The notes below the pieces were generated by a model. That model saw only the letters and a list, made by a program, of their open reading frames with translations. It was not told where the DNA came from and made no database searches. A DNA stretch of 64,000 bases from a virus (taxonomy: Duplodnaviria > Heunggongvirae > Uroviricota > Caudoviricetes). Position numbers and translations under genes: made by a program. The DNA lies in the IMG/VR virus record IMGVR_UViG_3300029957_000005, positions 64,001 through 128,000 of that record; one strand, written 5' to 3'. Numbering within the stretch: position 1 is the first letter of the stretch; every line of letters begins with the position of its first letter. Positions 10,009 to 64,000 of this stretch are shown in pieces.

Positions 10009-10647
10009 TTATCGCCAATTTTGAAGAATCATCGGATCTGTCAGCTCGTGAGGCTTTTCCTTCCCGTGGAAGTAGACGATCTTGACTCCGTCCCAACCCT
10101 TGTCCTTGACGTGACACTTGTAGGAAACCACCTGACCAGGGAAGAGATCATCGATGAAGACGTGTGGATAATTTCTCACGTGCTCCATGTCGTTCTCGCC
10201 TTGGTGCTCGGCCGCTATGATCCCCATTCCTTCTGGAACGAGGGCCACTCCGTTGCAGGCTCGAGACGGCCAGAAGGGATCGCGAGGGAGGGCGTATTCT
10301 CCTCCGGCCAGAACGTATTGAGCGAGAAGATCGATGTTCCCTACGACCACCGTGTCGAGCCCTACGAGTATCATAGGACGACTCAGACCATAGGGAAGAA
10401 TACAGTCTCCGTATCCGTTCTTGCCGAGGTTCGGAACGTAGGCCTGCCCGGTGGTGACTGCGTCTTCCTCGAACTTTCGATGACGATCGGTGAAGCAGAT
10501 GAAATCGAATGGAACGTTAAGATTTCTCTTGAACCCTCGATAGAGCTTATCTACCCACTCCTCATTGTACATCTGGGAGAAGTGTTCGGTGGTTTCATTC
10601 GGAGACCAGAGGAGAGTGGCTATCGTAAGCTGCATCAGCTGGCCCAC
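10009..10647 (-). CDS. glycosyltransferase-like protein (GT-A)
   Basis: WVDKLYRGFKRNL...FICFTD, GLDTVVVGNID (DxD-like), KIVYFHGKEKP C-terminal motif. Confidence 0.75.
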   Translation of the reverse strand: MGQLMQLTIATLLWSPNETTEHFSQMYNEEWVDKLYRGFKRNLNVPFDFICFTDRHRKFEEDAVTTGQAYVPNLGKNGYGDCILPYGLSRPMILVGLDTVVVGNIDLLAQYVLAGGEYALPRDPFWPSRACNGVALVPEGMGIIAAEHQGENDMEHVRNYPHVFIDDLFPGQVVSYKCHVKDKGWDGVKIVYFHGKEKPHELTDPMILQNWR

Positions 10648-11145: not shown

Positions 11146-11152
11146 TATTTAT
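11146..11152 (-). promoter_or_regulatory. late promoter, 4 nt before acetyltransferase ATG
   Basis: ATAAATA. Confidence 0.65.
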
Positions 11153-12411
11153 GCGGCGATCTGGTACGGAGTTGCGTCCTGGAATTCTCTCGGAAGGAGA
11201 GGAATCTGGGCGAGACGGTTGTTGGTCTCCCAGTCCTTGACACTCTTGGTCTTGTTGCTCAGACCGATGGTGATCCAGTGCTGGGCGACGTTGATCAAAG
11301 CAGTCACATCTCGAATGCCGGCAGCAAGCTGGTCGGCGACCTTGAAGTAAACCGATGCATACTCCTTCCGATCCTTGTGAGCGAAGACCCATTCAGCATA
11401 GCTCTTACGAACCGCTCGAGTGTCGCTGAGATCGAAGACGTCGAACCCACGGACGGGTCCATCCACGATCAGATCGTCGAAGTTGTCTTCGATGTCCTTG
11501 ATGATGTCTTCGGCATCTCCGGCAGTGAACCATTCGAATTGCTTCACAGCAACCTTGAGCTTGTCCTTGACTTCCGGAGCGGCATTCGAATAGATGTCGT
11601 CCCAGTTCTCCGAGAGGCGAGCGATCACGAAGTGGCGATCCGACTTCATGATGTCGATATAGCGATGCAGACGGACGTAGGCGTCGGCCTTGATCTTGAC
11701 TCGGTGTCCATTGACCAGAGTCACAACCACACCCTCCTGACCTTCCCAGGCACGGATCTCCTCGATCGAGGTTCCATCCCAGACCTTTGGAAGAGGAATA
11801 CCTTCGTAGCCTTGCAGGTTCTTCTCGAGGTGAGTAGCATATTCACCGATGAAGCGATTGCGAATGGCCAAGAGGACCAGACGAGGCTTCTGGTAGTTGA
11901 TCACGATCTTGTTGTCCGGCGACACGAATTCGAAGATCGGAGTGAAGCCGAACTTGACCATGTCGTGGATGAAGTCCTGATAGACTGCATTGGCCGCGAT
12001 GAAGCGCTCGGCCTTGAGGCTGACGTCGGTGATTCCAGCCCGAGTGGCGAGACGCGGACCCTGAGGCAGATCGAGAGCATGGATCATCGATCCGTCCAGC
12101 TTCTCGGCGACCTGGGCTCCGATGTAGTTCATCACATCGATGTCGGTCTCGTCCCGCTCTCCAAGATTGAAGAACTTGTGGAAAGGACGCGAGATGATCT
12201 TCCCGGTGCTCTTGAGGAAGGCGATGCCGCGCGCTTCACGAATGAAGGCGTCCTCGTAGTTCTCGACCGGAGGGAAATTGTTCGGGTTCAGGCTCGAGTA
12301 GTTGAACGTCACATAGTCGCCCTTGTCCGTCTTGTAGTAGGCGGCCGGGTTCTTGGCGATGATCGGCTCGAACTGGTCGATGTGCTCGATGACTGGGAAT
12401 TCGTAGTTCAC
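11149..12411 (-). CDS. rnlA: RNA ligase 1 (T4 Rnl1 family)
   Basis: REARGIAF...SRPFHKFFN, EKLDGS (motif I), FEFVSPDNKIV, QEGVV, RVKIK. Confidence 0.9.
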   Translation of the reverse strand: MNYEFPVIEHIDQFEPIIAKNPAAYYKTDKGDYVTFNYSSLNPNNFPPVENYEDAFIREARGIAFLKSTGKIISRPFHKFFNLGERDETDIDVMNYIGAQVAEKLDGSMIHALDLPQGPRLATRAGITDVSLKAERFIAANAVYQDFIHDMVKFGFTPIFEFVSPDNKIVINYQKPRLVLLAIRNRFIGEYATHLEKNLQGYEGIPLPKVWDGTSIEEIRAWEGQEGVVVTLVNGHRVKIKADAYVRLHRYIDIMKSDRHFVIARLSENWDDIYSNAAPEVKDKLKVAVKQFEWFTAGDAEDIIKDIEDNFDDLIVDGPVRGFDVFDLSDTRAVRKSYAEWVFAHKDRKEYASVYFKVADQLAAGIRDVTALINVAQHWITIGLSNKTKSVKDWETNNRLAQIPLLPREFQDATPYQIAA

Positions 12412-12973: not shown

Positions 12974-13414
12974 TTATCCGAGAAGATACGAAACGATGAG
13001 AACTGCTCCGATCACTCCGATTCCGAGCCAGATCTTCCAGGTCTTCGGTTCCATAATCTCCACGATGTGATCGAAGTTGTTGGCCTCGGTGATGGCAATG
13101 AACTCCTCTTCGTCCAGGTCCAGGTAGCCGATGATCGGATAGTGGTCGTCGGCCTTTCCGTGGATCTTGACGAGGAGGTCCTCTTCGAGGCGGCTGGTCG
13201 TGGTCGCATCCGGAAGGACGGACTTCGAGAACTGGGCCAGGGCATCGCAGAATCCATTTCTAGGAATTCGCGTTCCCTGGCCCGCCTTGCTCTTGAAGAA
13301 AGCGAGCATGTCTTCCTTGGAGTAGAGAGGCAAGATCTTCTTGGCTACATCAACGGTTTCCATCAAAAGTCGCCCGGGGCACATTGAAAACACGGGATGC
13401 CGTTCTCCCTCCAC
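12974..13414 (-). CDS. hypothetical membrane-anchored protein
   Basis: C-terminal TM segment IWLGIGVIGAVLIVSYLLG; start probably internal (METVDV). Confidence 0.55.
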   Translation of the reverse strand: MEGERHPVFSMCPGRLLMETVDVAKKILPLYSKEDMLAFFKSKAGQGTRIPRNGFCDALAQFSKSVLPDATTTSRLEEDLLVKIHGKADDHYPIIGYLDLDEEEFIAITEANNFDHIVEIMEPKTWKIWLGIGVIGAVLIVSYLLG

Positions 13415-13821
13415 ATCTTCACGACCTGGTCTCGATCGTCCACGGCGAAGACCGGATTGTAGCCTTCGGCCAGGATCTCGTCCAGGATTTCCTTCTTGAC
13501 GATGTCGTCCGAACGACGATCCTTGGCCTTGCGCATCCGCAGATCCGGGTGGGTGACCTGGTACTCAGAGAACAGGCATCCGAGGGTCTGCGGCAGGAAC
13601 TCGTCCGAACGACCGGAGCAGTAGATGATCTTGTATCCGAACATGTAGATCATGTCGTGGAGCAGCTTGACGTGGGGCAGAGCCTTGTCCAGGACGCAGG
13701 CTGCGTTGAATGCATCCCAGTTCTTGGGCTCCACCTGGACGTAGCGACGACGATGCTCCACATCGAACAAGGTTCCGTCCAGATCGAACAGGACGCAGTT
13801 GACTGGATATTTCTCGGTCAT
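13363..13821 (-). CDS. HAD-family polynucleotide 3'-phosphatase (C-terminal half of T4 PNKP)
   Basis: FDLDGTL (DxDxT), YCSGR, MRKAKDRRSDDIVKKE, AVDDRDQVVKMWRENGIPCFQ. Confidence 0.9.
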   Translation of the reverse strand: MTEKYPVNCVLFDLDGTLFDVEHRRRYVQVEPKNWDAFNAACVLDKALPHVKLLHDMIYMFGYKIIYCSGRSDEFLPQTLGCLFSEYQVTHPDLRMRKAKDRRSDDIVKKEILDEILAEGYNPVFAVDDRDQVVKMWRENGIPCFQCAPGDF

Positions 13822-14387
13822 GATGCGAATTTCTCCGTGAAGGCTTTCTCGAGAAGGACCTTGGACTCCGAGTATTTGAGGTTCGGACGACCTGGAACCT
13901 TGGCTCTCCAGAAGAGCGAATTGTCTGCATTGTCGCAGAGTTTGACGATGATCGAAAAGATGTCACCGATCGAAATCAGGACCATGATCTTCTCGACGTA
14001 GGTTTCGGCGAGACGGAAGCGAGTCATCTCCTCTTCCGTCAGAAACTTGTCGACATCCGAAGGCCATTCGGAAGGCTTGCAGAGGAGCATCAAGGATCGA
14101 AGCATCGCATGATCGTACTCGAGCTCCTTGGCGACCAAAGGAAGGGAACCAGGAACGTCCTCGATCACATCGTGGTAGAGACCTATGATGAATGCACGAT
14201 CGGCTGCGTCAGGGTTCTCTTCGAGGAACGGATGAAGCATCTTCTGCTGGACGGAGAGAACCACTCCCTCCGCTTCCAGGGCGACGCGATACGGATGCAA
14301 CCAATATGGGGCTTTCAGAGTATCGAACTGTCCCTCGTGATGGTCTTGGATCTGAGAGATGAATCGATTTCTGTCCTTGGGCTGCAT
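13818..14387 (-). CDS. HD-domain hydrolase, RelA/SpoT/Mesh1-like
   Basis: PYWLHPYRVA, GLYHDVIED, IVKLCDNADN match the RSH hydrolase motif order. Confidence 0.7.
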   Translation of the reverse strand: MQPKDRNRFISQIQDHHEGQFDTLKAPYWLHPYRVALEAEGVVLSVQQKMLHPFLEENPDAADRAFIIGLYHDVIEDVPGSLPLVAKELEYDHAMLRSLMLLCKPSEWPSDVDKFLTEEEMTRFRLAETYVEKIMVLISIGDIFSIIVKLCDNADNSLFWRAKVPGRPNLKYSESKVLLEKAFTEKFAS

Positions 14388-14401
14388 CCGGTATTCCTTT
14401 G

Positions 14402-14578
14402 CTATCGGAGGACGGCGAAGTGGAACCCGATCAGGTAACCACCAAGCATTCGTCTCTCGGAGAAGTGGTAGATGGACTCGTCTCCGAATTCCTTGGAAAT
14501 GGAGTCCATCTGCTGGTACGACGTCTGTTTTTCGATGTCATACGGACGGTAGATTTCGATGTACCGCTTGATCTTCAA
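14402..14578 (-). CDS. small hypothetical protein
   Basis: 3' part of track ORF 14402..14695; probable TTG start after GAGGA, start approximate. Confidence 0.4.
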   Translation of the reverse strand: MKIKRYIEIYRPYDIEKQTSYQQMDSISKEFGDESIYHFSERRMLGGYLIGFHFAVLR

Positions 14579-14582
14579 GGTC

Positions 14583-15014
14583 TTATTCCTCGTTGAACCA
14601 CTTCTTGACTTCGTTCCAGTTCTTGAAGGTCTTGGCGTCCCAGTTCCCTTCCCAGGCGACCTGGGGCTTGTTGTGGGACTCGATCGGACGGGCATGACCG
14701 CAGGAAGGGGTGATCCAGTAGAGAACGTTGCTGGTCTCCATGTCGCAGATCGAGAAGGAGTCGTAGAGACGACCGTTCATCGGGCAGTTGTTCTTGAAGA
14801 ACACATACATCGTGTCCTGGTTGATCATGCGGGAGTCGACGATCGACTTCAGACGCTTGACCAGGAGCTGGGTCTTGGCTGCAAGGGAGGTGTCCTTGCA
14901 GAACCAGTCATACCAACCAGCATCGATCTGGGTGTTCCGGTCGTTGCGATTGAACTCACCGGCATCAAAGCGACGGATCAGTTCGCGGATCGAGATGTTG
15001 GTCATGTCAGTTCT
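14583..15014 (-). CDS. hypothetical protein
   Basis: ORF 14583..15041; start near MTNISIRE downstream of promoter 15032-15060; GWYDWFC and NNCPMNGRLYDSFSIC motifs. Confidence 0.65.
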   Translation of the reverse strand, partial: RTDMTNISIRELIRRFDAGEFNRNDRNTQIDAGWYDWFCKDTSLAAKTQLLVKRLKSIVDSRMINQDTMYVFFKNNCPMNGRLYDSFSICDMETSNVLYWITPSCGHARPIESHNKPQVAWEGNWDAKTFKNWNEVKKWFNEE

Positions 15015-15031
15015 CTCCAGTTGATAGAAGT

Positions 15032-15060
15032 ACTCTATCACATCTGGAAAGAATGTAAAC
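15032..15060 (-). promoter_or_regulatory. early promoter
   Basis: GTTTACA-N16-TAGAGT. Confidence 0.8.
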
Positions 15061-15224
15061 TAGCCATTTAGCTGTTTTTTGCCGGTTTCCGCTTTTTTCC
15101 GCTGAAGGATCAATTTGTGATCCGCGGTACCGACCAGCTGCCATCCGAGATCCGAGTAGTAGGTCAGGGTTTCCTCGATTTGCTCCGGAAGGCTGTGCCA
15201 GATGCTGAGTACCTTGAATTCCAT
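15060..15224 (-). CDS. small hypothetical protein (54 aa)
   Basis: Hand-translated MEFKVLSIWH...YYSDLGWQLVG...KKQLNG*; below track cutoff. Confidence 0.5.
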   Translation of the reverse strand: MEFKVLSIWHSLPEQIEETLTYYSDLGWQLVGTADHKLILQRKKAETGKKQLNG

Positions 15225-15225
15225 G

Positions 15226-15420
15226 TCAGAAGATCCTCCAGTTGAGAAAGTCGACCTTGAGGGCCCAGTCCATGGCTTTTGCCATGAGCCAGAACGGAGC
15301 GAAGATGACCTTGAGGATCGAGAAGGTGGCGTTCTGGACCGTGTAGGTCTTGCGTCTGGATATCATCACCAGCTCATGAAAGCCGGCGATCAGGGAGCAG
15401 AGGAGCCAGAGACCGGTCAT
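15226..15420 (-). CDS. small membrane protein
   Basis: Start MTGLWLLCSL (ATG 15420); two hydrophobic segments. Confidence 0.6.
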   Translation of the reverse strand: MTGLWLLCSLIAGFHELVMISRRKTYTVQNATFSILKVIFAPFWLMAKAMDWALKVDFLNWRIF

Positions 15421-15641
15421 GTTTTCTTCCTCTGAATGATCTTGATCCTCCAGCCGATCTTGCTTCCCCAGTAGATGATGCCGAGAAGAATTCCGATCGG
15501 ACCGGCGATCCAGAGAAGGCAGCCTTGGACGAGGTCCTCGGCATCGACCACATCGGTGAGCTTGTAGCGAGTTCCGATGTAGAGCCAAAGACCGATCAGA
15601 CCGGAGACGGCCCAGCCGAGTAAGAAAATGAAGGCGGTCAT
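15417..15641 (-). CDS. small membrane protein
   Basis: 74 aa, two TM segments, ATGA-coupled. Confidence 0.65.
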   Translation of the reverse strand: MTAFIFLLGWAVSGLIGLWLYIGTRYKLTDVVDAEDLVQGCLLWIAGPIGILLGIIYWGSKIGWRIKIIQRKKT

Positions 15642-15910
15642 TCTGTTTCCTTTTCAGGTCCGCGAAGTTGGTATTCGAGATCTTTCTTAAAGACCGGGGT
15701 GTCCCAGTGATAGCTCAGCCACCAGTAGAGGAGTGCACCCCAGGCGATTGGTCCGAACAGGGAGCCGAACACCGTGGTGGCGATGTTGCCGACGTAGATG
15801 GTCTTCTTGTTGGTCATCATGATGTGGATGTTGAAGACCAAGAAGAGGAGGGACGAGAGGAGCCAGAACAGAGTCAGATAGCCGGGCAACATGCTGCTCC
15901 CTTGTTCCAT
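15638..15910 (-). CDS. small membrane protein
   Basis: 90 aa, two TM segments. Confidence 0.6.
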   Translation of the reverse strand: MEQGSSMLPGYLTLFWLLSSLLFLVFNIHIMMTNKKTIYVGNIATTVFGSLFGPIAWGALLYWWLSYHWDTPVFKKDLEYQLRGPEKETE

Positions 15911-16422
15911 TCCTTGAGTGAGATGATGTAGGTGAATCCTTCATCCATGGTCGGAGGTTCGTAGGTCTCCAGCATGTTCTTGAGGACGTAGCCCGGGATC
16001 TGCTTTCCGGCTCTGCTGGCGAGTCGACGCTTCCACTCGCCCGGATCGTCCACGGCGATGGCGTTCAGATCCACTCCGTAGATCTCGTAGCGATACTGAC
16101 GAGCGAGTTGGATGAACCTGGACCTGGAATTCTTGGTCAGGTTCGTTCGATCGATCATCAGAGGAACAGTACCATTAACGAGATGGTAATCAAGCTGGCG
16201 ATTAAACTCAGCAGTTGCAGATTTGATGGTCTCCTTGAAGATCGCGTCGTAGGTCGTACCATTTTCCGTGGCCTCCTTCTCGATGTAGTCATCGGACGAC
16301 AGGACGGTATAGTCCTTGAATCGGTCCTGCTTCCGGAAGGTGGTCTTTCCGGTTCCCGGGAGACCGATCAGTAGGTAAATATGCTTGACCATGTTAGATC
16401 CATTTCGATTTGGCGAAGTCAA
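15874..16422 (-). CDS. P-loop polynucleotide 5'-kinase (AAA_33-like; N-terminal half of PNKP)
   Basis: LLIGLPGTGKTT Walker A, LSSDD, IDRTNLTKNSR, YEPPTMDEGF. Confidence 0.8.
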   Translation of the reverse strand: MTSPNRNGSNMVKHIYLLIGLPGTGKTTFRKQDRFKDYTVLSSDDYIEKEATENGTTYDAIFKETIKSATAEFNRQLDYHLVNGTVPLMIDRTNLTKNSRSRFIQLARQYRYEIYGVDLNAIAVDDPGEWKRRLASRAGKQIPGYVLKNMLETYEPPTMDEGFTYIISLKEWNKGAACCPAI

Positions 16423-17265: not shown

Positions 17266-17508
17266 TCAATCGAACGAAATCACGAAATATTTTCCGAAAT
17301 CGGCCGGATCATGAAGATCGTAGCCGAAGCAGGCTTCTTGGATCTCTTCGGAGTCGATAGTCATGAGATCCATGTTCGCATGACGTCCGAAGTGGGCAAC
17401 GACCTGCTCTCGGATTTCTTCGAAGGTGATTCCACCGGAGGAGTGGCGAATGTAGAGAGTAGTCTCCGAACTCTCCGGATACCGACGAGTCAGAGCGTTG
17501 TCGTGCAT
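17266..17508 (-). CDS. hypothetical protein
   Basis: Probable start MHDNAL coupled to ligase stop (ORF 17266..17604), start approximate. Confidence 0.5.
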   Translation of the reverse strand: MHDNALTRRYPESSETTLYIRHSSGGITFEEIREQVVAHFGRHANMDLMTIDSEEIQEACFGYDLHDPADFGKYFVISFD

Positions 17509-18677
17509 CAGTTGTCTCGCTTTCCGTCGTGGAAGACCTTGACTCGACCAAACCGGAGCTTCCCGTCCTCGGTGTAGCCTTGGAAGACCACGGTGACTTC
17601 GCACTTGCCTTCGTAGTCGGCACGGTTCTCGTAGATGACTCGATTGCGGAGCATCGAACCAGTGACGGAGGCATCCGAGGTCTTTCCATCAGGGAGCTGA
17701 ACAGTCACCGACTTTGCGGCTCCCTTCCAGTTTCCGAGACCGTCGCGGATTTCGAGGAGAGGGAACTCGGCGTCCATGAAGTCCTTGACCTTGATCAGGG
17801 AGGTGGTCCGCTTGTGTTCGTAGATCGAGCTCGGGTCTCGGATCATGACTCCTTCATAACCCTTCTCGAATTCCTCGTCGTGGACCTTCTTGATCAGTTC
17901 GGCGGTGGCGCCGACCGCTGAGGTGTAGACGAGCTGGATGACGTCTCCGAAGTATCCACCGAACTCACCGAAGAGCTGCTGGAGGAAGGCGACTCGTTCA
18001 CGGAAGGTGGCGGAAGGACGATCGTGGAGGATGACGTCATAGACGTGATACTGAACCTTGTCCCGGATCTCCTGTCGATCCTCCTCGGTCAGCTTCTCGA
18101 TCTTCTTGGTGTTGATCAGGGAGGACAGCTTCTCGAAGTCAGACTTGAGCTCGTGATTGTAGAGCTCACCGTCCAGGGTGATGTTGTACATGTCGAAGAC
18201 TCCGGTGAGCTTCTCCATGATGTGGTCCACCGTCATGAACGGCTTTCCGGAGCGCGAGTGACCACCATCCTCGGATGCGAGGAAGCGATTGCCGTCCAGC
18301 TTCGGCTGATAGGCAAAGTAGTCGGTCGGCTGCTTCTTCTTGAGGTGCTTGACCGAGTCGTAGGTTGCGGCCAGCATCGGAGCAAGGAAGTTGCTCTTCT
18401 TGGCGCCGTCGGCGGTCTCCGAATACTTCCGGCTCAGACGATCGCGATAGACCGACTGGATCTCGAGGTCGGCCTGGGCTTCTGGGGTGGTCTCATTGGA
18501 ACGACCGATATTCTTGGCTTCGGCGTCCCTCCAGTCCGAGGTGACCTTTGCTCCATCCACGAGACCGGAGACAGTTCGGTACTTTCCACCGTTCCTCTCT
18601 GCGTACCAGACACGAAGGTTGTCGTTCTGATCGATGTGATAGAGGTTTGGATAGACTTGATTGATCTGGAGTTGCAT
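17508..18677 (-). CDS. lig: ATP-dependent DNA ligase
   Basis: QPKLDGNR (KxDG), LDGELY, YHVYD, YEGVMIR, LIKVKDFMDAEF; start MQLQINQ (ATG 18677). Confidence 0.92.
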   Translation of the reverse strand: MQLQINQVYPNLYHIDQNDNLRVWYAERNGGKYRTVSGLVDGAKVTSDWRDAEAKNIGRSNETTPEAQADLEIQSVYRDRLSRKYSETADGAKKSNFLAPMLAATYDSVKHLKKKQPTDYFAYQPKLDGNRFLASEDGGHSRSGKPFMTVDHIMEKLTGVFDMYNITLDGELYNHELKSDFEKLSSLINTKKIEKLTEEDRQEIRDKVQYHVYDVILHDRPSATFRERVAFLQQLFGEFGGYFGDVIQLVYTSAVGATAELIKKVHDEEFEKGYEGVMIRDPSSIYEHKRTTSLIKVKDFMDAEFPLLEIRDGLGNWKGAAKSVTVQLPDGKTSDASVTGSMLRNRVIYENRADYEGKCEVTVVFQGYTEDGKLRFGRVKVFHDGKRDN

Positions 18678-18691
18678 GTGGTTCCTTGGGG

Positions 18692-18916
18692 TTAGAGATA
18701 ATCGTGGTTGAAGATCCACATCTCGACTCCGGTCTCCCGTTCGATCTTGGTGGCTTCAATGCGGGCTGCGGTCGAGCTGACGAAACCGTACTCGGCTGCT
18801 TTGGGGAACTTGGCTCGGACGATCTTGCGATCCTCTCGGGCCTTCTTGGAGTTGGTGGCTGAAGCTACGTCGTAGCCCCAATAACGGCATCCTTTGAATT
18901 CTTCACCGACTTTCAT
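18692..18916 (-). CDS. hypothetical protein
   Basis: 74 aa. Confidence 0.55.
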   Translation of the reverse strand: MKVGEEFKGCRYWGYDVASATNSKKAREDRKIVRAKFPKAAEYGFVSSTAARIEATKIERETGVEMWIFNHDYL

Positions 18917-38514: not shown

Positions 38515-38521
38515 ATAGATA
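38515..38521 (+). promoter_or_regulatory. late promoter (sheath)
   Basis: ATAGATA, 30 nt before ATG, SD AAGGAG. Confidence 0.7.
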
Positions 38522-41692: not shown

Positions 41693-41699
41693 ATAGATA
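41693..41699 (+). promoter_or_regulatory. late promoter, 4 nt before portal ATG
   Basis: ATAGATA. Confidence 0.65.
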
Positions 41700-44515: not shown

Positions 44516-44522
44516 ATAGATA
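44516..44522 (+). promoter_or_regulatory. late promoter (gp22)
   Basis: ATAGATA, 25 nt before ATG, SD TAGGAG. Confidence 0.7.
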
Positions 44523-44547: not shown

Positions 44548-45930
44548 ATGGCAAAGAAGCTGAAGTCCGTAATGGAAGCTGACAACGAGATCAATGACAT
44601 CGAGGATCTCCTCAAGGGCCAGGAGCCTACGACCGTCCGTGACGGCAAGGACATCTTTGGTGAGTCTGAAGACGACGACAAGAAGGACGATGACGTAGAA
44701 GTCAATGAGTCCGACGATGACGACGATGAAGACAAGAACGATGTGAACGAAGCAGAGATCGAAGACGTCATCGACGCTTCGGACAAGGTCCTCAATGCCA
44801 TTGGGAAGAAGGACTCCAACGAAGGTACCTCCGGTGGAGATGAAACCATCGATGAAGGCGACGAGTTCTGCGTCGGTGACGACAACTCAGACGAGATCTT
44901 CGAAGACGAAGAGGCTGATGCTGAGAACGCAAGAAACAAGAAGGTCTCTGAAGCCAAGAAGCTGAAGGAAGCCAAGGACGCGAAGGCAGCCAAGAAGCTC
45001 AAGGAAGCTAAGGCAGCCAAGAAGGCAGCCAAGCTCAAGGAAGCTGAAGACGACGATGACGACAAGGATGACCTTGACGAATCTGAAGACGATGACGACG
45101 ATGACGACAAGGTCAACGAGTCAGACGACGATGAAGATGACGACAAGGACATGAACGAGTCCGACGATGATGACGACGACAAGGATGATGACAAGGTCAA
45201 CGAGTCGACGCTGTCTCCGAAGGAGCTTAAGATCGTCATGGAAGCTCTCAAGATCCCGGCTTCTGCGAAGAAGGAAATCAAGACCATCTTCGAAGCTATG
45301 GTCAAGAACAAGATCAAGGCTCAGAAGTCTCTGATCGAAGCGAAGTCTGAAAAGAAGGTCGCTAAGATCCGTGAAGAGCTGATCGAAGGCGTCGACCTTT
45401 ATGCCAAGGAAGTTGTGACCAAGTGGAAGGCAGCTAACAAGCCAGTCTTCGAAAACCAGGTCAAGCTTGCTCGTCTCGAGGAAGGCTTCCACAAGCTCGG
45501 TGAGATCTTCAAGGCCCTCGGTCTTGAGTCCAGCCTCAATGAGTCCGCAGTTGCTGCAAAGTACTCGACTCTGACCACCAAGTACAACGCACTTCTCGAG
45601 CGCAATCAGAAGCTCGAGTCCTACGTCGAAAAGATCCACGTTCGTGAGCTCTATGAGGCATGTGTCTCTGGTCTGTCCAAGAACCAGAAGCGCAAGTTCA
45701 TCTCTCTCGCAGAGACGCTGGAATACGATACCGTCAAGGATCTCAAGGAGAAGCTTGACGCAATTAAGAAGCTCTTTGTAGAGAAGAAGGTCTACGAAGA
45801 TGACGAACTTGAAGACAAGACTGTGAACGAGGAGTCCTTCGACGACGAAGGCGTTCTTTCACCAGATGAGAACGACATCGGCGACAACGATGCCCTCGTA
45901 TCTGAATCAGTCAAGCTTTTGATGATTTAA
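44548..45930 (+). CDS. gp22: prohead core/scaffold gp22 with long acidic N-terminal extension
   Basis: C-half EGVDLYAKEVVTKW..ANK, GLSKNQKRKFISLAE; N-half D/E-rich repeats. Confidence 0.85.
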   Translation: MAKKLKSVMEADNEINDIEDLLKGQEPTTVRDGKDIFGESEDDDKKDDDVEVNESDDDDDEDKNDVNEAEIEDVIDASDKVLNAIGKKDSNEGTSGGDETIDEGDEFCVGDDNSDEIFEDEEADAENARNKKVSEAKKLKEAKDAKAAKKLKEAKAAKKAAKLKEAEDDDDDKDDLDESEDDDDDDDKVNESDDDEDDDKDMNESDDDDDDKDDDKVNESTLSPKELKIVMEALKIPASAKKEIKTIFEAMVKNKIKAQKSLIEAKSEKKVAKIREELIEGVDLYAKEVVTKWKAANKPVFENQVKLARLEEGFHKLGEIFKALGLESSLNESAVAAKYSTLTTKYNALLERNQKLESYVEKIHVRELYEACVSGLSKNQKRKFISLAETLEYDTVKDLKEKLDAIKKLFVEKKVYEDDELEDKTVNEESFDDEGVLSPDENDIGDNDALVSESVKLLMI

Positions 45931-45936
45931 TATATA
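45930..45936 (+). promoter_or_regulatory. late promoter (gp23)
   Basis: ATATATA, 25 nt before ATG, SD CAGGAG. Confidence 0.7.
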
Positions 45937-47871: not shown

Positions 47872-48359
47872 GAGTTCATGAAGGCTGTGTGCAGCTCTTC
47901 AGCTTTCTTTTTGACGTCGGTTTCGGTGTAGAGAGGTTCGTAGTTCCTGAACCGAAGGTCCTGTTCGTTCGGAGGAGTGGTGGTCGTGTACCATTCATGC
48001 TTGGCATTGTCTCCGTGACGATGCTCCGGCTTGTACTCCCACCTCCAGGCGAATGGACGCTTGTTCTTTTCTCCGTAGAGATCTCTGGTCACGATCTTGG
48101 CGTGGATGACCTCGGCTCCGGTCCGAATGACCTTCGGAGGTTCTGGATCTACACACCACTTGCCGACCTGATGATCGTACGAGAGATAGATGTCCTCCAC
48201 CTTGGCTTCACGGGCGATCTCCAGCTCGAGGTCCCGACGGAGCACATTGATCGGCTCCCACCACTTGTCTCCGTAGACGTACTTGAGATTGACGTCGGAG
48301 TCGTGGCCGGTGAGGATCCGGAGGGCGTTGGAGGCTCGGGACAGGAGGGACTCGGTCAT
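47868..48359 (-). CDS. hypothetical protein
   Basis: 163 aa, ATGA-coupled. Confidence 0.6.
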   Translation of the reverse strand: MTESLLSRASNALRILTGHDSDVNLKYVYGDKWWEPINVLRRDLELEIAREAKVEDIYLSYDHQVGKWCVDPEPPKVIRTGAEVIHAKIVTRDLYGEKNKRPFAWRWEYKPEHRHGDNAKHEWYTTTTPPNEQDLRFRNYEPLYTETDVKKKAEELHTAFMNS

Positions 48360-57498: not shown

Positions 57499-57848
57499 GC
57501 TGCACTCTTCGGATGAACATAGCGGATGCCTTCGGCTCGAGCCCAATCACGACCTTCGTTCTCGGCGCCTTTCGAGGTCTCGTACTTCCCGAACCCTGTC
57601 TGCCAAGGCTCCCAGAAGCCGTCGGTGTTCCAGTAGATGTGGACGGCAGTCCATCCGGAGATCGACTCATAGATCGTGATGTACTCGGACTTGTCGTTCG
57701 CGTTCAGGAACTCGCGGATCGCCAGGACGGTCTCGTCCTTGTCGGCGAAGTTGCTCCCACCTTGGTGGACGCTCCCAGGAGCGATGGCCGAATAGAGTCC
57801 GATCAGCTTTTCTTCCGCTTGACGCAGAAGGGCAATTGCTTCTTTCAT
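57495..57848 (-). CDS. hypothetical protein
   Basis: 117 aa, ATGA-coupled. Confidence 0.6.
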   Translation of the reverse strand: MKEAIALLRQAEEKLIGLYSAIAPGSVHQGGSNFADKDETVLAIREFLNANDKSEYITIYESISGWTAVHIYWNTDGFWEPWQTGFGKYETSKGAENEGRDWARAEGIRYVHPKSAA

Positions 57849-58624
57849 TGAATGTCCTCGATTGCTTCTATGAGTTTGAACAAGTCCGCGGCGTAGAAGC
57901 CGGCGGCGTTCATGCAGTTGGTCTCGATGATCTTGAGTCCCTCGTCCGTCCTGCAGACGTCAAGGACGTAGGCCTGGGCGTACCCTGGATTCAGGGCTAT
58001 CATCCACTCCACGAATTCGCGAGCGTCCTGGTCGATCTCCTCCCGATAGAGGACACGACCACCCATCTTGTAGAGGGACGAAGTGATCAGTCGATCCTCG
58101 ACGATCCAGTTCCTCCACTCCTTCTGGATGTGGTGAGGTTCTCCGATCATCATGAGGGTGTCCGGCTTCAGGGAGCCTTGGATGTATTCTCCGGGCAGGA
58201 GGTTGTTCACGTTCCGAGCCATCTCTGTCAGCTCGTCCGAGGTCATCACGGTCCCGGCGATCTCCTTGGAGTCCTCCACCGGACGAACGAACCAGAGATC
58301 ATCTCCGTCCAGGGCCAGGAAGCCGAGTTCTCGAACGGTGAGGGTCTTGCATTCGGCTCCATTCAGGAGGAAAGGAATCCACGGCTTCTCGTAGAGGAAC
58401 GGTCGAAGCTCGAAGACGCCTGGCTTGAGATCGTGATCCCGGGCGTAGTGCCTCAGGGAATAGGAGCCGAACATGACCACTCGGTCCGGGTCTTGAATGA
58501 TAGGCTCTGGGAGGAGGTCACCGACGAATGGGACCACCTTGTGGGTCGAGTATGGGAGGCCGACTCTCTCAAGGATGTCGGCCAGCTTGTCGGTGTCCTC
58601 ATAGGACTGTAGGATCCACTGCAT
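57845..58624 (-). CDS. ATP-grasp domain protein (DUF4343/R2K-like)
   Basis: WFVRPVEDSKEIAG, IQKEWRNWIVEDRLITSSLY, AYVLDVC...LKIIETNCMNAAGFY. Confidence 0.8.
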   Translation of the reverse strand: MQWILQSYEDTDKLADILERVGLPYSTHKVVPFVGDLLPEPIIQDPDRVVMFGSYSLRHYARDHDLKPGVFELRPFLYEKPWIPFLLNGAECKTLTVRELGFLALDGDDLWFVRPVEDSKEIAGTVMTSDELTEMARNVNNLLPGEYIQGSLKPDTLMMIGEPHHIQKEWRNWIVEDRLITSSLYKMGGRVLYREEIDQDAREFVEWMIALNPGYAQAYVLDVCRTDEGLKIIETNCMNAAGFYAADLFKLIEAIEDIQ

Positions 58625-60248: not shown

Positions 60249-60443
60249 TTAGCGGTTCTGCATCCAGACGGCTGCTTCGAACTTCGACATCTCGCGGTTG
60301 ACCCACTTCTTGAAGGGATGCCGCTGACCAGGTCCGGGTTCGTTGTCGTTCTCACACATGGCTTCACCGGACTGGCGGAACTGGCAGTGCATTCCCTTAC
60401 GCTCGGCTTCCGTGCGATTTGAAAAGTGCTGCTGGTTTCTCAT
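60249..60443 (-). CDS. hypothetical protein
   Basis: 64 aa after promoter 60477-60505. Confidence 0.5.
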   Translation of the reverse strand: MRNQQHFSNRTEAERKGMHCQFRQSGEAMCENDNEPGPGQRHPFKKWVNREMSKFEAAVWMQNR

Positions 60444-60476
60444 TTCCGTAACTCCAGTGCATTTCTTATGTTTTCC

Positions 60477-60505
60477 ACTCTATACTGATTCCTCGGGATG
60501 TAAAC
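60477..60505 (-). promoter_or_regulatory. early promoter
   Basis: GTTTACA-N16-TAGAGT. Confidence 0.8.
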
Positions 60506-60510
60506 AGCAA

Positions 60511-60540
60511 AAAGGAGAGAACCGAAAGGTTCTCTCCTTT
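60511..60540 (-). terminator. intrinsic terminator
   Basis: AAAGGAGAGAACC-GAAA-GGTTCTCTCCTTT 13-bp stem; T-run follows on minus strand. Confidence 0.85.
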
Positions 60541-60562
60541 GAAGGGACTTCTCCGCTTCCCG

Positions 60563-61027
60563 TTACCTGGCGGAGAAGTCGTAGAATTGATCTCGAACAC
60601 CGATGACCAGGGCGGGGAAGTTCCGGGCGGTGACGACTCGACCGTTTTCGTTGATCTGGGCTCCGACCCAGCGACCGTTCTTGAAGCGGTAGGTGTAGGC
60701 TCGACCGTTCGGGTTCGCTTGATAGTCGTAGTGCTGGTCGAAGCTCGGACCGTTCTTGTCCGTTCGCTTGGCGACGTCTTCCTGGACCCGGATCATCGAG
60801 ACGTTCTTGAACTCGGTGACCTCGACGATGGTCGCGGCATGTCGGTCCTTGTAGTAGCAGAGGGTGGCACCCATTCCGACGAGGGGTTCGACTCCATGGA
60901 CCGAGAGAAGCATGGCATTCGAGACCGTGTTCTTGGTCGGCTCGAAGACGAACTTCCGGGCAGGCTCCTTCTGAGAGCGAGAGGTCTTGCGGTTCGAATT
61001 GTGCTGAGTCAGTGCGTTCATGATCAT
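60563..61027 (-). CDS. hypothetical protein (paralog B)
   Basis: GATLCYYKDRHAATIVEV; C-terminal RDQFYDFS. Confidence 0.7.
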   Translation of the reverse strand: MIMNALTQHNSNRKTSRSQKEPARKFVFEPTKNTVSNAMLLSVHGVEPLVGMGATLCYYKDRHAATIVEVTEFKNVSMIRVQEDVAKRTDKNGPSFDQHYDYQANPNGRAYTYRFKNGRWVGAQINENGRVVTARNFPALVIGVRDQFYDFSAR

Positions 61028-61077
61028 TACTCCTTACTGGTTGATGATGATAGGCTACTCACATATTCACAATTCAT

Positions 61078-61106
61078 AATATAATGCGTCCCCCGGGATT
61101 GTAAAC
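61078..61106 (-). promoter_or_regulatory. early promoter
   Basis: GTTTACA-N16-TATATT; -35 box sits in the loop of a CCGGG/CCCGG hairpin. Confidence 0.7.
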
Positions 61107-61140
61107 CCCGGAGGTGCAAAAAATTTTGGAAGGTTAATTT

Positions 61141-61389
61141 TCAGTGAAGGGTCGGCTTGTCCGGAAGCAGGGCAGTCCGGATGAAGTTCCGACCGAGGGA
61201 GATCCAATTTGCTGAGGAGATGGAATCAAAGGAGTCTATGAAGACCCGTGTGCGCACGCAGCGCCCCTCGTCGTCGTCGTAGGTCATCTCGTAGAAGCCG
61301 ATAGGATTGTAGTCAAGGAAGAAGTGAGGGCAGTCAACGCCCTCTATAACAGCCGCAGAAGTATGCATCCAAGTCCCCGTAAAGCCCAT
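61141..61389 (-). CDS. hypothetical protein
   Basis: 82 aa downstream of tmRNA. Confidence 0.4.
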   Translation of the reverse strand: MGFTGTWMHTSAAVIEGVDCPHFFLDYNPIGFYEMTYDDDEGRCVRTRVFIDSFDSISSANWISLGRNFIRTALLPDKPTLH

Positions 61390-61399
61390 TTTGATGTGA

Positions 61400-61750
61400 T
61401 GGTTGGTAACAGAATGTTTCTACCTTTTTTCCAAGGTTACGTACACTGGAAAAGTGGGCCCGTTGGGTAAAAAGGTGGAGCCCATACCCCTGAAGGTTAC
61501 GCCGCTAGGGCTACGCCTTCGTATGAAACGTTGTCGTTTGCATTTACAGTTTTGGCCGTGATGAAGGTACTTGCCATGCCTAGTCGCGTTCTTCTCTACC
61601 TGTGCCAATCGAGCCTAGTTCACCCCCATCAGAAACAGTGTTCAGAGGACCAGTTCCCTACATCCGTCGATATAGACCTACCGTGGTCATGACACTGCTT
61701 TTGGTGGAGGTGGCGGGAGTTGCACCCGCGTCTTGACACCTCTCAAGTCG
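61400..61750 (-). ncRNA. ssrA: circularly permuted (two-piece) tmRNA
   Basis: Minus strand order: acceptor piece ...GGTGTCAAGACGCGGG-TGCAACT-CCCGC-CACCTCC-A-CCA (ends 61702); 74-nt intervening segment; coding piece GGGGGTG-AACTAGGCTCGA-TTGGCAC (starts 61627); G3:U70 pair; helix TTGGCAC/GTGTCAA; tag ORF present. Outer ends approximate. Confidence 0.93.
61497..61541 (-). other. tmRNA tag reading frame (A)ANDNVSYEGVALAA*
   Basis: GTAAAT-GCA AAC GAC AAC GTT TCA TAC GAA GGC GTA GCC CTA GCG GCG TAA. Confidence 0.93.
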
Positions 61751-61752
61751 AC

Positions 61753-61779
61753 ATTATACGACTATCGAACTTTATCTAT
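61753..61779 (-). promoter_or_regulatory. candidate tmRNA promoters: late-type ATAGATA (61773-61779) and TATAAT (61753-61758)
   Basis: Both immediately upstream of the acceptor piece. Confidence 0.5.
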
Positions 61780-61936
61780 TCCACGACTCCTCTGGAGGAC
61801 CTTCTTTCAATTCATCACCGCTTTTTGCTAGCATTTACGGATCAGAACCGGCCGTCCACCTCCACTCCTGCAGGAGCTTCATAGGCAGGCATCACACCCG
61901 CGGTGCATTGAAGGCCCACCAGAGGAGTCGTGGAAT
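61778..61936. repeat. 18-bp perfect inverted repeat closing a ~160-nt structured element
   Basis: ATTCCACGACTCCTCTGG (61778-61795) / CCAGAGGAGTCGTGGAAT (61919-61936), intergenic. Confidence 0.85.
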
Positions 61937-61943
61937 TAAACGA

Positions 61944-62135
61944 TCACCAGCCTACGCTGGTGTCGTACTTCTCGACGAGACCGTCGATCTCCGGCTTGCG
62001 GGTCAGAGGACCTTCAATCCGGACTGCATCACCCTGCTTGGTCGCACGAATCACGACTTCGGTCCCACGGTACATTTCGATGAGGGCATGAAAATTGGCT
62101 TCCGAAGTCTCGATGTAGCGAACGTAGTTAGTCAT
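61944..62135 (-). CDS. hypothetical protein
   Basis: 63 aa after promoter 62169-62197. Confidence 0.6.
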   Translation of the reverse strand: MTNYVRYIETSEANFHALIEMYRGTEVVIRATKQGDAVRIEGPLTRKPEIDGLVEKYDTSVGW

Positions 62136-62168
62136 TGATCTGCATCCCTCACTGATTTGATAAGAAGC

Positions 62169-62197
62169 ACTCTAAACTGATTCTAGGAAATGTAAAC
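62169..62197 (-). promoter_or_regulatory. early promoter
   Basis: GTTTACA-N16-TAGAGT. Confidence 0.8.
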
Positions 62198-62204
62198 TGA
62201 AAAA

Positions 62205-62429
62205 TCACCAGGAATGGACGGGATCCGACTCATTCACATTTTCAGGCCCCATATCTCCGAATTGGGCCGGAGGAGTCAGGATCTGATCGAGAGTCATGAT
62301 TCTGTAGAGGCCGCCTGGACCGAGCATCGAGTGATAGACTGTTCCATCTTTCTCACGACGGGAGCCCACCAGGCTCCATCCCTCGGTCTTCCAGGCAGTC
62401 AGTATTTCGTTTGGGATAAAGTCAGACAT
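62205..62429 (-). CDS. hypothetical protein
   Basis: Start MSDFIPNE (ATG 62429) overlapping upstream stop. Confidence 0.5.
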   Translation of the reverse strand: MSDFIPNEILTAWKTEGWSLVGSRREKDGTVYHSMLGPGGLYRIMTLDQILTPPAQFGDMGPENVNESDPVHSW

Positions 62430-62535
62430 CGAGGTACGAAAGCTCTCTATCAAGCTGGTGGAGGTAGTTGGTCACCTGAACCGCGAGGAGTCCCCAGGCG
62501 ATGATGGCGATGACGATGAGGATCTTCTTGAACAT
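62422..62535 (-). CDS. 37-aa single-TM protein
   Basis: Hand-translated MFKKILIVIAIIAWGLLAVQVTNYLHQLDRELSYLDV*; GGAG SD. Confidence 0.5.
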   Translation of the reverse strand: MFKKILIVIAIIAWGLLAVQVTNYLHQLDRELSYLDV

Positions 62536-62588
62536 GGTCTTGATCTCCGTTGATGAGACCAGTATAATTTGAACGGGTTAACTAAAGG

Positions 62589-63287
62589 TTAATTCAGGTT
62601 TCGGACGATGAATTCTTTCGAACCGAGGTTGTTGGTGATCCAGATGATCTGGGAGGTCTTGACGATCTTATCGAGGATCACGGCCTGGTCGGTCTTGGTT
62701 TTGTTGATGTGAGTGATCCATTCTTGGTCCTGCTTCAGGGAGTGGACTAGATCGTCTCCATCCGTGACGTATGACCTGTTGAGAGAATAGATGTCGTAGT
62801 AGTCTGGGTTCTTGAGCTCCGGATGCTTGTCGTTCTTCTTGTAGATCTTGCTTCGAAACTTGACGAAGCCGAATTTCTGATAGTCCTTATAGGCCTTGGC
62901 GATTTCGGCGTCCGTGATCGGGGTGTGGATCAGATCCTTCTCACCGTTCGCGGTTCTCAGACCTGCAAAACCTTCGGCAACTTTTCGATCGTCCGTCCAC
63001 GAGGACAGGAACTTATTGGCCGCGTTGAACTTGGATCCTACTGTCTCGCCTCGATACAGACGAATGGTCGAACCTAGAGTCTTTCGAATAGGAGCAAAGA
63101 CCGACTCTATCTCCTTGGCTATCGCATCGTTGTTCCGAATGGAGTTCTCTAGAGCACCTCCGACCCACTGAGATCTTTCCCAGGAGGAGATTGCATCCTT
63201 AGCCTCGTCGGACAGGGAGTTCCAAGCCTTCTTGGCCTGTCCGATGTAGGCCATCTCATTCATGAACCTCGCGAATGAGCCAGGCAT
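62589..63287 (-). CDS. putative ADP-ribosyltransferase-fold protein
   Basis: IRLYRG ... LSSWTDDRKVAEGFA ... KEFIV in R-S-E order. Confidence 0.5.
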   Translation of the reverse strand: MPGSFARFMNEMAYIGQAKKAWNSLSDEAKDAISSWERSQWVGGALENSIRNNDAIAKEIESVFAPIRKTLGSTIRLYRGETVGSKFNAANKFLSSWTDDRKVAEGFAGLRTANGEKDLIHTPITDAEIAKAYKDYQKFGFVKFRSKIYKKNDKHPELKNPDYYDIYSLNRSYVTDGDDLVHSLKQDQEWITHINKTKTDQAVILDKIVKTSQIIWITNNLGSKEFIVRNLN

Positions 63288-63455
63288 TTAGTACTTCGTG
63301 AATTTGGAACGGAGGAATGCAGAGAAAGACTCGTCATACTTCCCTTCACCTATCTTGATTGACGGATTGATCGCCATGTGGGCTGGCTTCTTCTCGTTTC
63401 TCTCGAGGCCTGTCGGGGACTTGCGGAGCTTCTGCTCCTTGAGATTCTTCTTCAT
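63288..63455 (-). CDS. small basic late protein (55 aa)
   Basis: Hand-translated MKKNLKEQKL...ESFSAFLRSKFTKY*; late promoter 5 nt upstream; TAA abuts the next ATG. Confidence 0.6.
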   Translation of the reverse strand: MKKNLKEQKLRKSPTGLERNEKKPAHMAINPSIKIGEGKYDESFSAFLRSKFTKY

Positions 63456-63460
63456 GCGGA

Positions 63461-63467
63461 TATCTAT
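63461..63467 (-). promoter_or_regulatory. late promoter, 5 nt before ATG 63455
   Basis: ATAGATA. Confidence 0.65.
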
Positions 63468-63521
63468 AGACCGGACGATTCAAGGCCCGAGTAATGATCT
63501 CGAGCAAGTTCGGTACGATAA

Positions 63522-63596
63522 TGGTGCGGGTGGAGGGACTCGAACCCTCGTCCCTGGAGTGGCGCTCCAAGATAATAACCTCTATACTACACACGC
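63522..63596 (-). tRNA. trnG: tRNA-Gly(GCC), atypical
   Basis: GCGTGTG...TTGGA-GCGCCAC-TCCAG...GAGGG-TTCGAGT-CCCTC-CACCCGC-A-CCA; encoded CCA. Confidence 0.75.
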
Positions 63597-63624
63597 AGTT
63601 GTTGACGATTGTCCTTTACGAGAA

Positions 63625-63716
63625 TGGCGGAAGGCATCGGTCTCGATCCGAACACCTCTTCCCGAGGTGCGATACGCTTAGCAGGCGGTCCCGGAGCCCC
63701 GTCCGGTTTACCTTCC
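63625..63716 (-). tRNA. trnS: tRNA-Ser(GCT)
   Basis: GGAAGGT acceptor, CTGCTAA loop, long variable arm CACCTC/GAGGTG, G73, encoded CCA. Confidence 0.82.
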
Positions 63717-63998
63717 TTTTGTCTTCTTGGTCACAGCCTTGGCACGATACACGGGCTTCCTGACCATCACGGTCTCACGTCTGATGGTTCCATCTCCACA
63801 GGAGCAGGGAACCCAACCCTCGGAACGATGCGCATCAGCGGACTCCAGATATGATCCGGTTCCTCCGCAGACTCCGCAGGATCTCCACTTGGATTTCGGG
63901 AGTTCGCGTGTCTCATAGAGGGCAGGCTTTATCATCACTGGTCTTTCGTAGACCGATCTCTTCACCATGGTGGCGAATATCTTCCAATCCTGCTTCAT
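63708..63998 (-). CDS. Zn-finger protein (CxxCxGxG / CxCxxG, DnaJ-type)
   Basis: CGVCGGTG...VPCSCGDG; may extend beyond the window. Confidence 0.55.
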   Translation of the reverse strand: MKQDWKIFATMVKRSVYERPVMIKPALYETRELPKSKWRSCGVCGGTGSYLESADAHRSEGWVPCSCGDGTIRRETVMVRKPVYRAKAVTKKTKGR

Positions 63999-64000
63999 AA

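Follow-up and report, generated by a model that had tools for sequence, protein, structure and literature searches.

Does an uncultured T4-like phage carry a complete transfer-messenger RNA (tmRNA) gene in the circularly permuted, two-piece form, and if so, where might the gene have come from and what might it do in infection? The question is raised by the minus strand of a 64,000-nucleotide (nt) stretch of DNA, bases 64001-128000 of the 163,358-bp IMG/VR virus record IMGVR_UViG_3300029957_000005, which we call the window and whose numbering is used below unless a coordinate is marked as genome. A sequence-only reading had placed such a gene in a box at 61400-61750 and had proposed ARAGORN and Infernal as a check. 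Both programs call the gene. ARAGORN reports a permuted tmRNA at 61406-61794 on the minus strand (genome 125406-125794) with the tag ANDNVSYEGVALAA. Using Infernal with Rfam, the model RF04321 (tmRNA_permuted) is matched over its whole length (positions 1-213 of 213) with 119.2 bits against a gathering threshold of 47 (E 1e-22), and a run over the whole genome gave the same result. The model RF01849 (alpha_tmRNA) scores 75.9 bits against a gathering threshold of 50; it was the top of the tmRNA clan and was kept in place of four overlapping clan matches with lower scores. A structured pattern for the permuted element has one match in the window and none in 100 shuffles. The order of the parts is permuted, with the encoded CCA ending at 61702, G1 at 61627 and a 74-nt spacer between them. 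Since the first tmRNA helix begins at 61763, the gene reaches beyond the box drawn initially. The circularly permuted tmRNA gene is complete and real.

The T-arm, the acceptor strands, the spacer, the G3:U70 pair, the helix-2 pairing and the tag frame all lie on the minus strand exactly where the sequence-only reading had put them (Table 1), and mechanical gene calling does set open reading frames (ORFs) over the tmRNA gene, which that reading had dismissed as spurious. All identity elements for AlaRS are present, namely a 7-bp acceptor stem, G3:U70, the discriminator A73 and CCA. In the Rfam alignment, helix 2 is made of three segments bridging both pieces, and an unconstrained co-fold of the two proposed mature pieces gave back the inter-piece acceptor stem and the T-arm. 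The tag is of the type with an alanine resume codon, an ANDN start, an ...ALAA end and an in-frame stop. The score of the pseudoknot that follows the tag was matched by 1 of 200 shuffles, and pseudoknots of the same layout, differing in sequence, begin 7-9 nt past the stop in three relatives (L003, L175 and L005). The intervening segment folds with a dG of -26.3 kcal/mol (z -2.8). The 3' trailer folds with a hairpin, though its overall stability does not exceed that of shuffles, and pairing between the leader and the trailer, which may be compared with the ends of the alpha model, amounts to a patchy duplex of -17 kcal/mol.

Conservation among related viral genes points in the same direction. 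We assembled a covariation set of 38 unique genes from the viral group described below. The G:U at acceptor pair 3 is invariant (38/38), and pairs 1-3 of helix 2a are paired in 36-38 of the 38 genes, using two to seven standard pair types. Compensatory variation was also seen at acceptor pairs 5 and 6 and at T-stem pairs 1 and 2; because paired acceptor and T stems were required for extraction, only the helix-2a covariation is independent. The tags of the viral group are in frame and end in ...AA.

We predict, with a probability of roughly 0.8, that the gene encodes a working two-piece ssrA of a lytic T4-like myovirus, the last element of its tRNA module, which would use the RNase P, 3'-end processing, AlaRS and SmpB of the host. 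This prediction is made because all known determinants are intact, G3:U70 is invariant, compensatory changes are found and the tags are in frame. The RNA would be transcribed as a single precursor, probably from its own late-type promoter, ATAGATA. By analogy with Caulobacter, host RNase P might then cut 5' of G61627 while host 3' processing trims to the CCA at 61702, whereby the 74-nt hairpin would be removed. The two RNAs would be held together by the 7-bp acceptor stem and helix 2, a pairing shown by the sequence and by co-folding, and would be charged by host AlaRS through G3:U70 and A73. Host SmpB would bring the tmRNA to ribosomes that have stalled on mRNAs which are broken or lack a stop codon, where translation would resume at GCA and append ANDNVSYEGVALAA, a normal ...ALAA degradation tag. 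Dependence on host SmpB, already proposed from the window, is a fair inference because smpB is absent from the whole 163-kb genome in a PF01668 search that detected the gene in control genomes. The likely benefit would be that ribosomes are kept free during heavy late translation, after the collapse of host transcription and of the host ssrA supply, or while mRNA is being cut by host nucleases.

Several observations weigh against this prediction. The RF01849 alignment covers model positions 40-270 of 355 and leaves positions 1-39 and 271-355 unmatched. The G at T-loop position 55 deviates from the tRNA consensus; it also occurs in one-piece tmRNAs encoded on the chromosomes of Elusimicrobia and candidate-phyla bacteria. 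The candidate pseudoknot 1 (3+4 bp), which ends 11 nt before the resume codon, reached p 0.2 against shuffles; its stem UGGC/GCCA was found again by the scan in the relative L192 and, by eye, in L183. The gene has no close orthologue (identity of 69% or less), which limits how constraint on this copy can be measured. The closest phage relative, G001, has no tmRNA, so that the gene is dispensable in this lineage and covariation can be assessed at the family level only. Finally, the literature that we retrieved on phage tmRNAs contains no experimentally shown role for any of them.

Table 1. Features of the two-piece tmRNA gene and of its surroundings in the window.
Feature	Position	Strand	Basis or remark
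Acceptor piece, at least 62 nt	61702..61763	-	Rfam alignment, ARAGORN 3' tRNA domain, sequence
Helix-2 strands of the acceptor piece, AGUCG; GUGUCAA	61763-61759; 61739-61733	-	Rfam alignment, sequence
T-stem GCGGG/CCCGC	61729-61725 with 61717-61713	-	Sequence
T-loop UGCAACU	61724-61718	-	7 nt on a 5-bp stem
Acceptor 3' strand CACCUCC; discriminator A (A73); encoded CCA	61712-61706; 61705; 61704-61702	-	
Intervening segment, 74 nt	61628..61701	-	Between CCA and G1; closed hairpin
5' end of the coding piece	61602..61627	-	Sequence, Rfam, ARAGORN
Acceptor 5' strand GGGGGUG	61627-61621	-	G3:U70 with CACCUCC
Alpha-type D-loop analogue AACUAGGCUCGA	61620-61609	-	Same form in alphaproteobacterial and viral genes
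Helix-2a strand UUGGCAC	61608-61602	-	Pairs with GUGUCAA 61739-61733
Helix-2c strand CGACU	61586-61582	-	Rfam alignment
Candidate pseudoknot 1, AGG/CCU; UGGC/GCCA	61581-61579 with 61567-61565; 61576-61573 with 61556-61553	-	Region 61553..61586 with helix 2c
Tag reading frame: resume codon GCA, ANDNVSYEGVALAA, stop UAA; 14 codons	61497..61541	-	ARAGORN; Rfam alignment stops at UAA
Post-tag H-type pseudoknot, GGGUA/UACCC stacked on UGGGCUC/GGGCCCA	61455..61489	-	Pseudoknot scan
3' trailer of the coding piece, hairpin at about 61453-61427	61406..61454	-	ARAGORN gene end 61406
Late-promoter-like motif ATAGATA	61773..61779	-	Immediately 5' of the first tmRNA helix
ATANATA sites, examples	38515-38521, 41693-41699, 44516-44522, 45930-45936	+	
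ATANATA sites, examples	61773-61779, 63461-63467	-	
RNA-repair genes and ATP-dependent DNA ligase	11149-12411, 13363-13821, 15874-16422, 17508-18719	-	Pfam

The chromosomal two-piece tmRNA of the Caulobacter type was reportedly described by Keiler, Shapiro and Williams in 2000. The phage gene shares with the chromosomal alpha tmRNA (RF01849) the order of acceptor piece, spacer and coding piece, G3:U70, the encoded CCA, a D-loop analogue (GAAnnAGGnUCGA), helix 2, a tag starting with ANDN and an ...LAA end. The two differ in the T-arm. According to the sequence-only reading, the deviant T-loop UGCAACU was itself the alphaproteobacterial form, and this claim failed. We searched bacteria with a pattern combining the permuted order, the alpha form of the D-loop and the ANDN start of the tag, which matched at least 120 bacterial contigs; among the matches listed, nearly all were Alphaproteobacteria. 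All 119 genes parsed from them have GGCAGUA, GGCGGUA or a close variant of these as the T-loop, and UGC never occurs. An even sample of the alphaproteobacterial class (151 genomes) contained 146 with a permuted tmRNA above the cut-off. For the 30 highest and the 40 lowest scorers among these 146 we parsed the T-loops; 53 could be read, and 52 of the 53 have a GGCRGnn loop in a near-invariant CCGGG/CCCGG stem. Chromosomal alphaproteobacterial genes combined thus carry GGCRGnn in 171 of 172 cases. The sole other gene is an extra copy, its genome having a normal one as well, and it lies in a prophage, since a large-terminase gene is 3.4 kb away. The T-arm of the phage gene (GCGGG-UGCAACU-CCCGC) has neither the alpha-specific stem nor the GGCRGnn loop, although the alpha-type D-loop analogue GAACUAGGCUCGA and the ANDN tag start are both present. 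Its spacer of 74 nt may also be compared with chromosomal spacers, mostly shorter than 60 nt, and with those of viral relatives, which span 50-107 nt.

As a side observation, a UGC-type permuted tmRNA of a prophage, with the tag ANDNSPVAMAA, is found in L298 (G122:C5:278500-298499) at about 10055-10313 on the minus strand, with the terminase at 13701-16373 on the same strand. The large terminase of L298 has a weak LAGLIDADG-like match (E 2.4e-4, under the Pfam threshold), possibly an intein.

For the viruses, we used a pattern of the permuted order, the alpha D-loop and a T-loop of the U(G/U)CRANY type, so that the type of loop was preselected. It matched 49 IMG/VR contigs. Among 185,579 bacterial species genomes, the same pattern matched only two short contigs from metagenome-assembled genomes (MAGs; Caulobacteraceae and Terricaulis), at least one of which looks chromosomal. 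The exact string of T-arm and acceptor (26 bases) is shared by 11 further IMG/VR contigs, of which nine have a permuted tmRNA. With the preselection for U(G/U)CRANY kept in mind, the UGCRAnU loop is present in 53 of the 54 genes parsed from the viral-pattern contigs, the contigs with the T-arm string and the two MAG contigs. Judged by its sequence, the gene belongs to a virus-associated group of permuted tmRNAs whose T-loop is UGCRAnU, defined in this analysis and not a published family, and the UGCAACU loop would be a viral signature. Cultured phages are mixed in this respect, Melnitz and Phosso having the alpha loop and HTVC008M having UGCAAUA. The literature retrieved on phage tmRNAs contains no mention of this difference between viral and chromosomal T-loops.

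The 26-base string was also tried as a probe for a bacterial donor and discarded: the bacterial matches are all one-piece tmRNAs (Elusimicrobia, Saccharibacteria and Berkelbacteria) with unrelated tags, which is convergence of the tRNA-like end and not kinship. The T-arm pattern combined with the exact tag codons had zero matches in bacteria, a weak negative because the codon demand is so narrow that just one viral contig matches. One-piece tmRNAs also occur in the viral contigs L004 (7213-7521, minus strand) and L008 (2855-3160, plus strand), where the tags are ANDNVELVPTAIAA and ANDNVEFVPAAIAA. At the 3' tRNA-like end, both genes are identical to the permuted gene here, so that the two gene forms exist in viruses with near-identical ends.

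Where, then, did the gene come from? We built a tree from 193 unique sequences of the mature parts with the T-arm columns removed, in which support is weak, as the sequences are so short. The tmRNA groups nearest to viral genes, at identities of 69% or less, and viral and chromosomal labels are strongly clustered. Genome scans of bacteria found no chromosomal donor. Because the nearest relatives are viral and no more than 69% identical, the gene is not a recent capture from a host chromosome. The alphaproteobacterial origin claimed by the sequence-only reading therefore stands in part: the D-loop analogue, the resume context, the ANDN...ALAA tag and the helix-2 layout suggest that the gene is alpha-type by descent, while a recent capture from a host is contradicted by the viral relatives, by the missing donor and by the closest phage relative, which is without the gene. 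That it was taken from an alphaproteobacterial host would hold at most as a statement of distant ancestry.

The altered T-arm might have a meaning of its own. It is conceivable, though we consider it doubtful, that the UGCRAnU phage tmRNAs represent a virus-adapted lineage, or recurrent adaptation after capture, and serve as a specialised takeover tool, not as a spare part from the host. The T-arm, with U54/A58 restored, G55 kept, a variable stem and a long spacer, would then change the dealings of the RNA with host factors, for example SmpB, modification enzymes or RNase R. A single clade of all UGC-type genes was not rejected (approximately unbiased test, p-AU 0.66), and the constrained tree was likelier than the tree from the free search. 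The unusual D-loop of HTVC008M, AUAUAGGUUUGA, is also found in a low-G+C alphaproteobacterial genome with a normal GGCGGUA T-loop; since this D-loop is shared across T-loop types, repeated conversion after capture could still have taken place.

A promoter-like motif stands directly before the gene. ATANATA, mostly as ATAGATA, has 20 copies in the window against 4.9 +/- 2.1 in shuffles, a four-fold enrichment, and most copies are located 5-35 nt upstream of late genes on the same strand, including those for sheath, portal, scaffold and capsid. ATANATA is probably the version of the T4 late promoter TATAAATA in this phage, and the copy before the tmRNA would act as its late-type promoter. A transcript from it would start at or just before 61763, in which case the 5' end of the acceptor piece would be a primary end. 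On the 3' side, a search for terminators gave only weak consensus matches, located inside other features.

Directly upstream of the tmRNA, a rod-like hairpin of about 170 nt (61771-61941, minus strand) folds with a dG of -79.8 kcal/mol (z -6.2). Its arms at 61778-61795 and 61919-61936 form an 18-bp inverted repeat without mismatches, which continues to about 30 bp and is unique in the window, and the rod has no match in Rfam. The rod may end or insulate the upstream transcript, or may serve as an RNase III site. It is absent from other viral tmRNA loci, whose inverted repeats are 13 bp or shorter, and was rejected as a feature of the family.

The phage itself is an uncultured T4-like myovirus whose 163,358-bp record is about 93% complete. 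As the sequence-only reading had it, the tmRNA is phage-encoded: the window holds genes for a gp23-type major head protein, portal, scaffold, tail sheath, large terminase, and baseplate wedge and hub, with an even G+C content throughout. The 24 tRNA genes (genome 127522-134683) are all on the minus strand, and the tmRNA is located at the downstream end of this array on the same strand, separated from the last tRNA by one ORF of 232 codons. The top cultured matches of the capsid protein, at about 50% identity, are Pelagibacter phage HTVC008M and Methylophilales phage Melnitz. IMG/VR contains a single relative closer than these, G001 (IMGVR_UViG_3300044475_000188; 154 kb, terminal repeats, 31.6% G+C), with 75% capsid identity and the same module of a conserved block followed by a tRNA array, here of 28 tRNAs. 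Because G001 is without a tmRNA, the gene is accessory in this phage lineage. The Pfam matches in the window include an RNA-repair set, consisting of a T4 Rnl1-type RNA ligase (PF09511), a PNKP phosphatase domain in an ORF of its own (PF25109) and a P-loop kinase (AAA_33); the functions of PNKP seem to be divided among separate genes. Together with the 24 tRNAs, the RNA-repair genes suggest a kit that sustains translation when infection is advanced or when host RNases attack.

Three side observations concern this setting. The array of G001 contains, at 47982-48056, a predicted suppressor tRNA with the anticodon UUA (reading UAA), which may be a sign of stop-codon reassignment. In the phage studied here, the tRNAs Lys-UUU, Cys-GCA and Lys-CUU (genome 128415-128501, 129399-129484 and 129492-129581, past the end of the window) are 86-90 nt long, unusual for their isotypes, and may have introns or extra arms. 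An ATP-grasp protein of the R2K clade (PF14243, 1e-18) is encoded at 57845-58624 on the minus strand, within the variable stretch that separates the capsid gene from the tmRNA.

Might the gene be a neutral or decaying passenger, acquired with the tRNA genes or by recombination, that contributes nothing to infection? G001 has the same tRNA module without a tmRNA, pseudoknot 1 is weak, and the RF04321 score is at the low end of the alphaproteobacterial range (119 versus 84-171 bits). Yet no determinant is damaged, this architecture is retained, with compensatory changes and undamaged tags, in dozens of viral contigs, and the late-type promoter motif is placed exactly before the gene, so we consider a passenger unlikely. 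A decoy or competitor is very unlikely, because the coding part is intact. Such an RNA would titrate host SmpB, or outcompete the host tmRNA, and thereby redirect or damp host trans-translation instead of adding to it. There are precedents: an RNA of the DS6A type in mycobacteriophages, having the tRNA-like domain only, is reported to inhibit tmRNA, perhaps through SmpB titration (PMC4131195; PMC11915505), and the authors of the Lacusarx study raised the idea that tagging by the host might be counteracted by a phage tmRNA (PMC5648845). The phage is without smpB, and the virus-typical T-loop, unlike the chromosomal alpha form, could alter interactions with host factors. A decoy, however, requires no coding part, whereas the resume context, the 14-codon frame, the stop, the ...ALAA degron and the post-tag pseudoknot are all intact and the tags are conserved throughout the viral group. 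That the tmRNA is not phage DNA, but host sequence flanking a prophage, a piece of an attachment site or a chimera made in assembly, is hardly credible: tmRNA genes are common integration sites and fragments occur in prophages, according to two papers (PMC9004378; PMC4383910), but this gene is full length, about 38 kb from the contig end, on the same strand as the tRNA array and with a viral, not chromosomal, T-loop, and the phage genes on both sides, the even G+C and the lack of any integrase in the phage genome set these readings aside.

A two-piece tmRNA in a phage does not stand alone, and the sequence-only reading overrated the rarity of such genes. Two-piece tmRNAs of Melnitz and of pelagimyophages have been published by Buchholz et al. 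(2022, PMC9004378), whose survey put the two-piece forms at 53 among 402 phage genomes with a tmRNA and in which 17 of 47 contigs resembling Melnitz had a permuted tmRNA; a 2025 tmRNA database lists 79 phage sequences (PMC11915505). We confirmed permuted tmRNAs above the Rfam cut-off in five cultured phages, namely Melnitz, Mosig, HTVC008M, CcrPW and Phosso. Melnitz and the Pelagibacter phages Mosig and HTVC008M are likewise T4-like myoviruses, the top cultured capsid matches at about 50% identity, with an alpha-type tmRNA body and no phage smpB reported, and the T-loop of HTVC008M (UGCAAUA) is of the UGC type, as here; sequence similarity to the gene here is restricted to the tRNA-like core. 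Melnitz has the T-loop GGCAGUA and a 142-nt spacer, and its tmRNA gene has a glutamine riboswitch, is said to follow an early promoter (PMC9004378) and is accompanied by four tRNAs. The gene here, in contrast, follows a late-type motif at the end of a 24-tRNA array, and no glutamine riboswitch was found in 60400-64000 at E <= 1.

Permuted tmRNAs are also carried by Caulobacter phage CcrPW, Sinorhizobium phage Phosso and Sphingobium phage Lacusarx, the last with 24 tRNAs and one tmRNA (PMC5648845). These are large, tRNA-rich phages, as here, but of other families (siphoviruses and jumbo phages). The tmRNA of CcrPW lies inside the tRNA array, between tRNA-Cys and tRNA-fMet, and Phosso combines the alpha T-loop with a spacer of about 410 nt from CCA to G1, by far the longest found in this analysis. 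In the GenBank records of Phosso (L223, PV764938.1, 349596-350198) and CcrPW (L226, MH588545.1, 140753-141047) the tmRNA is unannotated. Mycobacteriophages of the Bxz1 group and Bacillus phage G also carry ssrA without a phage smpB, although their tmRNAs are one-piece and unpermuted and their hosts are unrelated (PMC4131195).

Since two-piece tmRNAs of phages have already been published, a phage-encoded permuted tmRNA is not new, and this gene is a new, rather divergent member. Only the virus-associated T-loop subclass and the likely late promoter directly before the gene are fresh points. The analysis adds a well-resolved, divergent two-piece tmRNA in a deep-branching T4-like phage, and the 24 tRNAs and the RNA-repair set fit the picture in which large phages bring their own translation-maintenance kit. 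The type of tmRNA is a weaker guide to the host than assumed, and a tmRNA with a UGC-type loop in a metagenome bin may flag viral or prophage DNA. The difference in the T-loop provides a concrete, testable feature for the function of phage tmRNAs.

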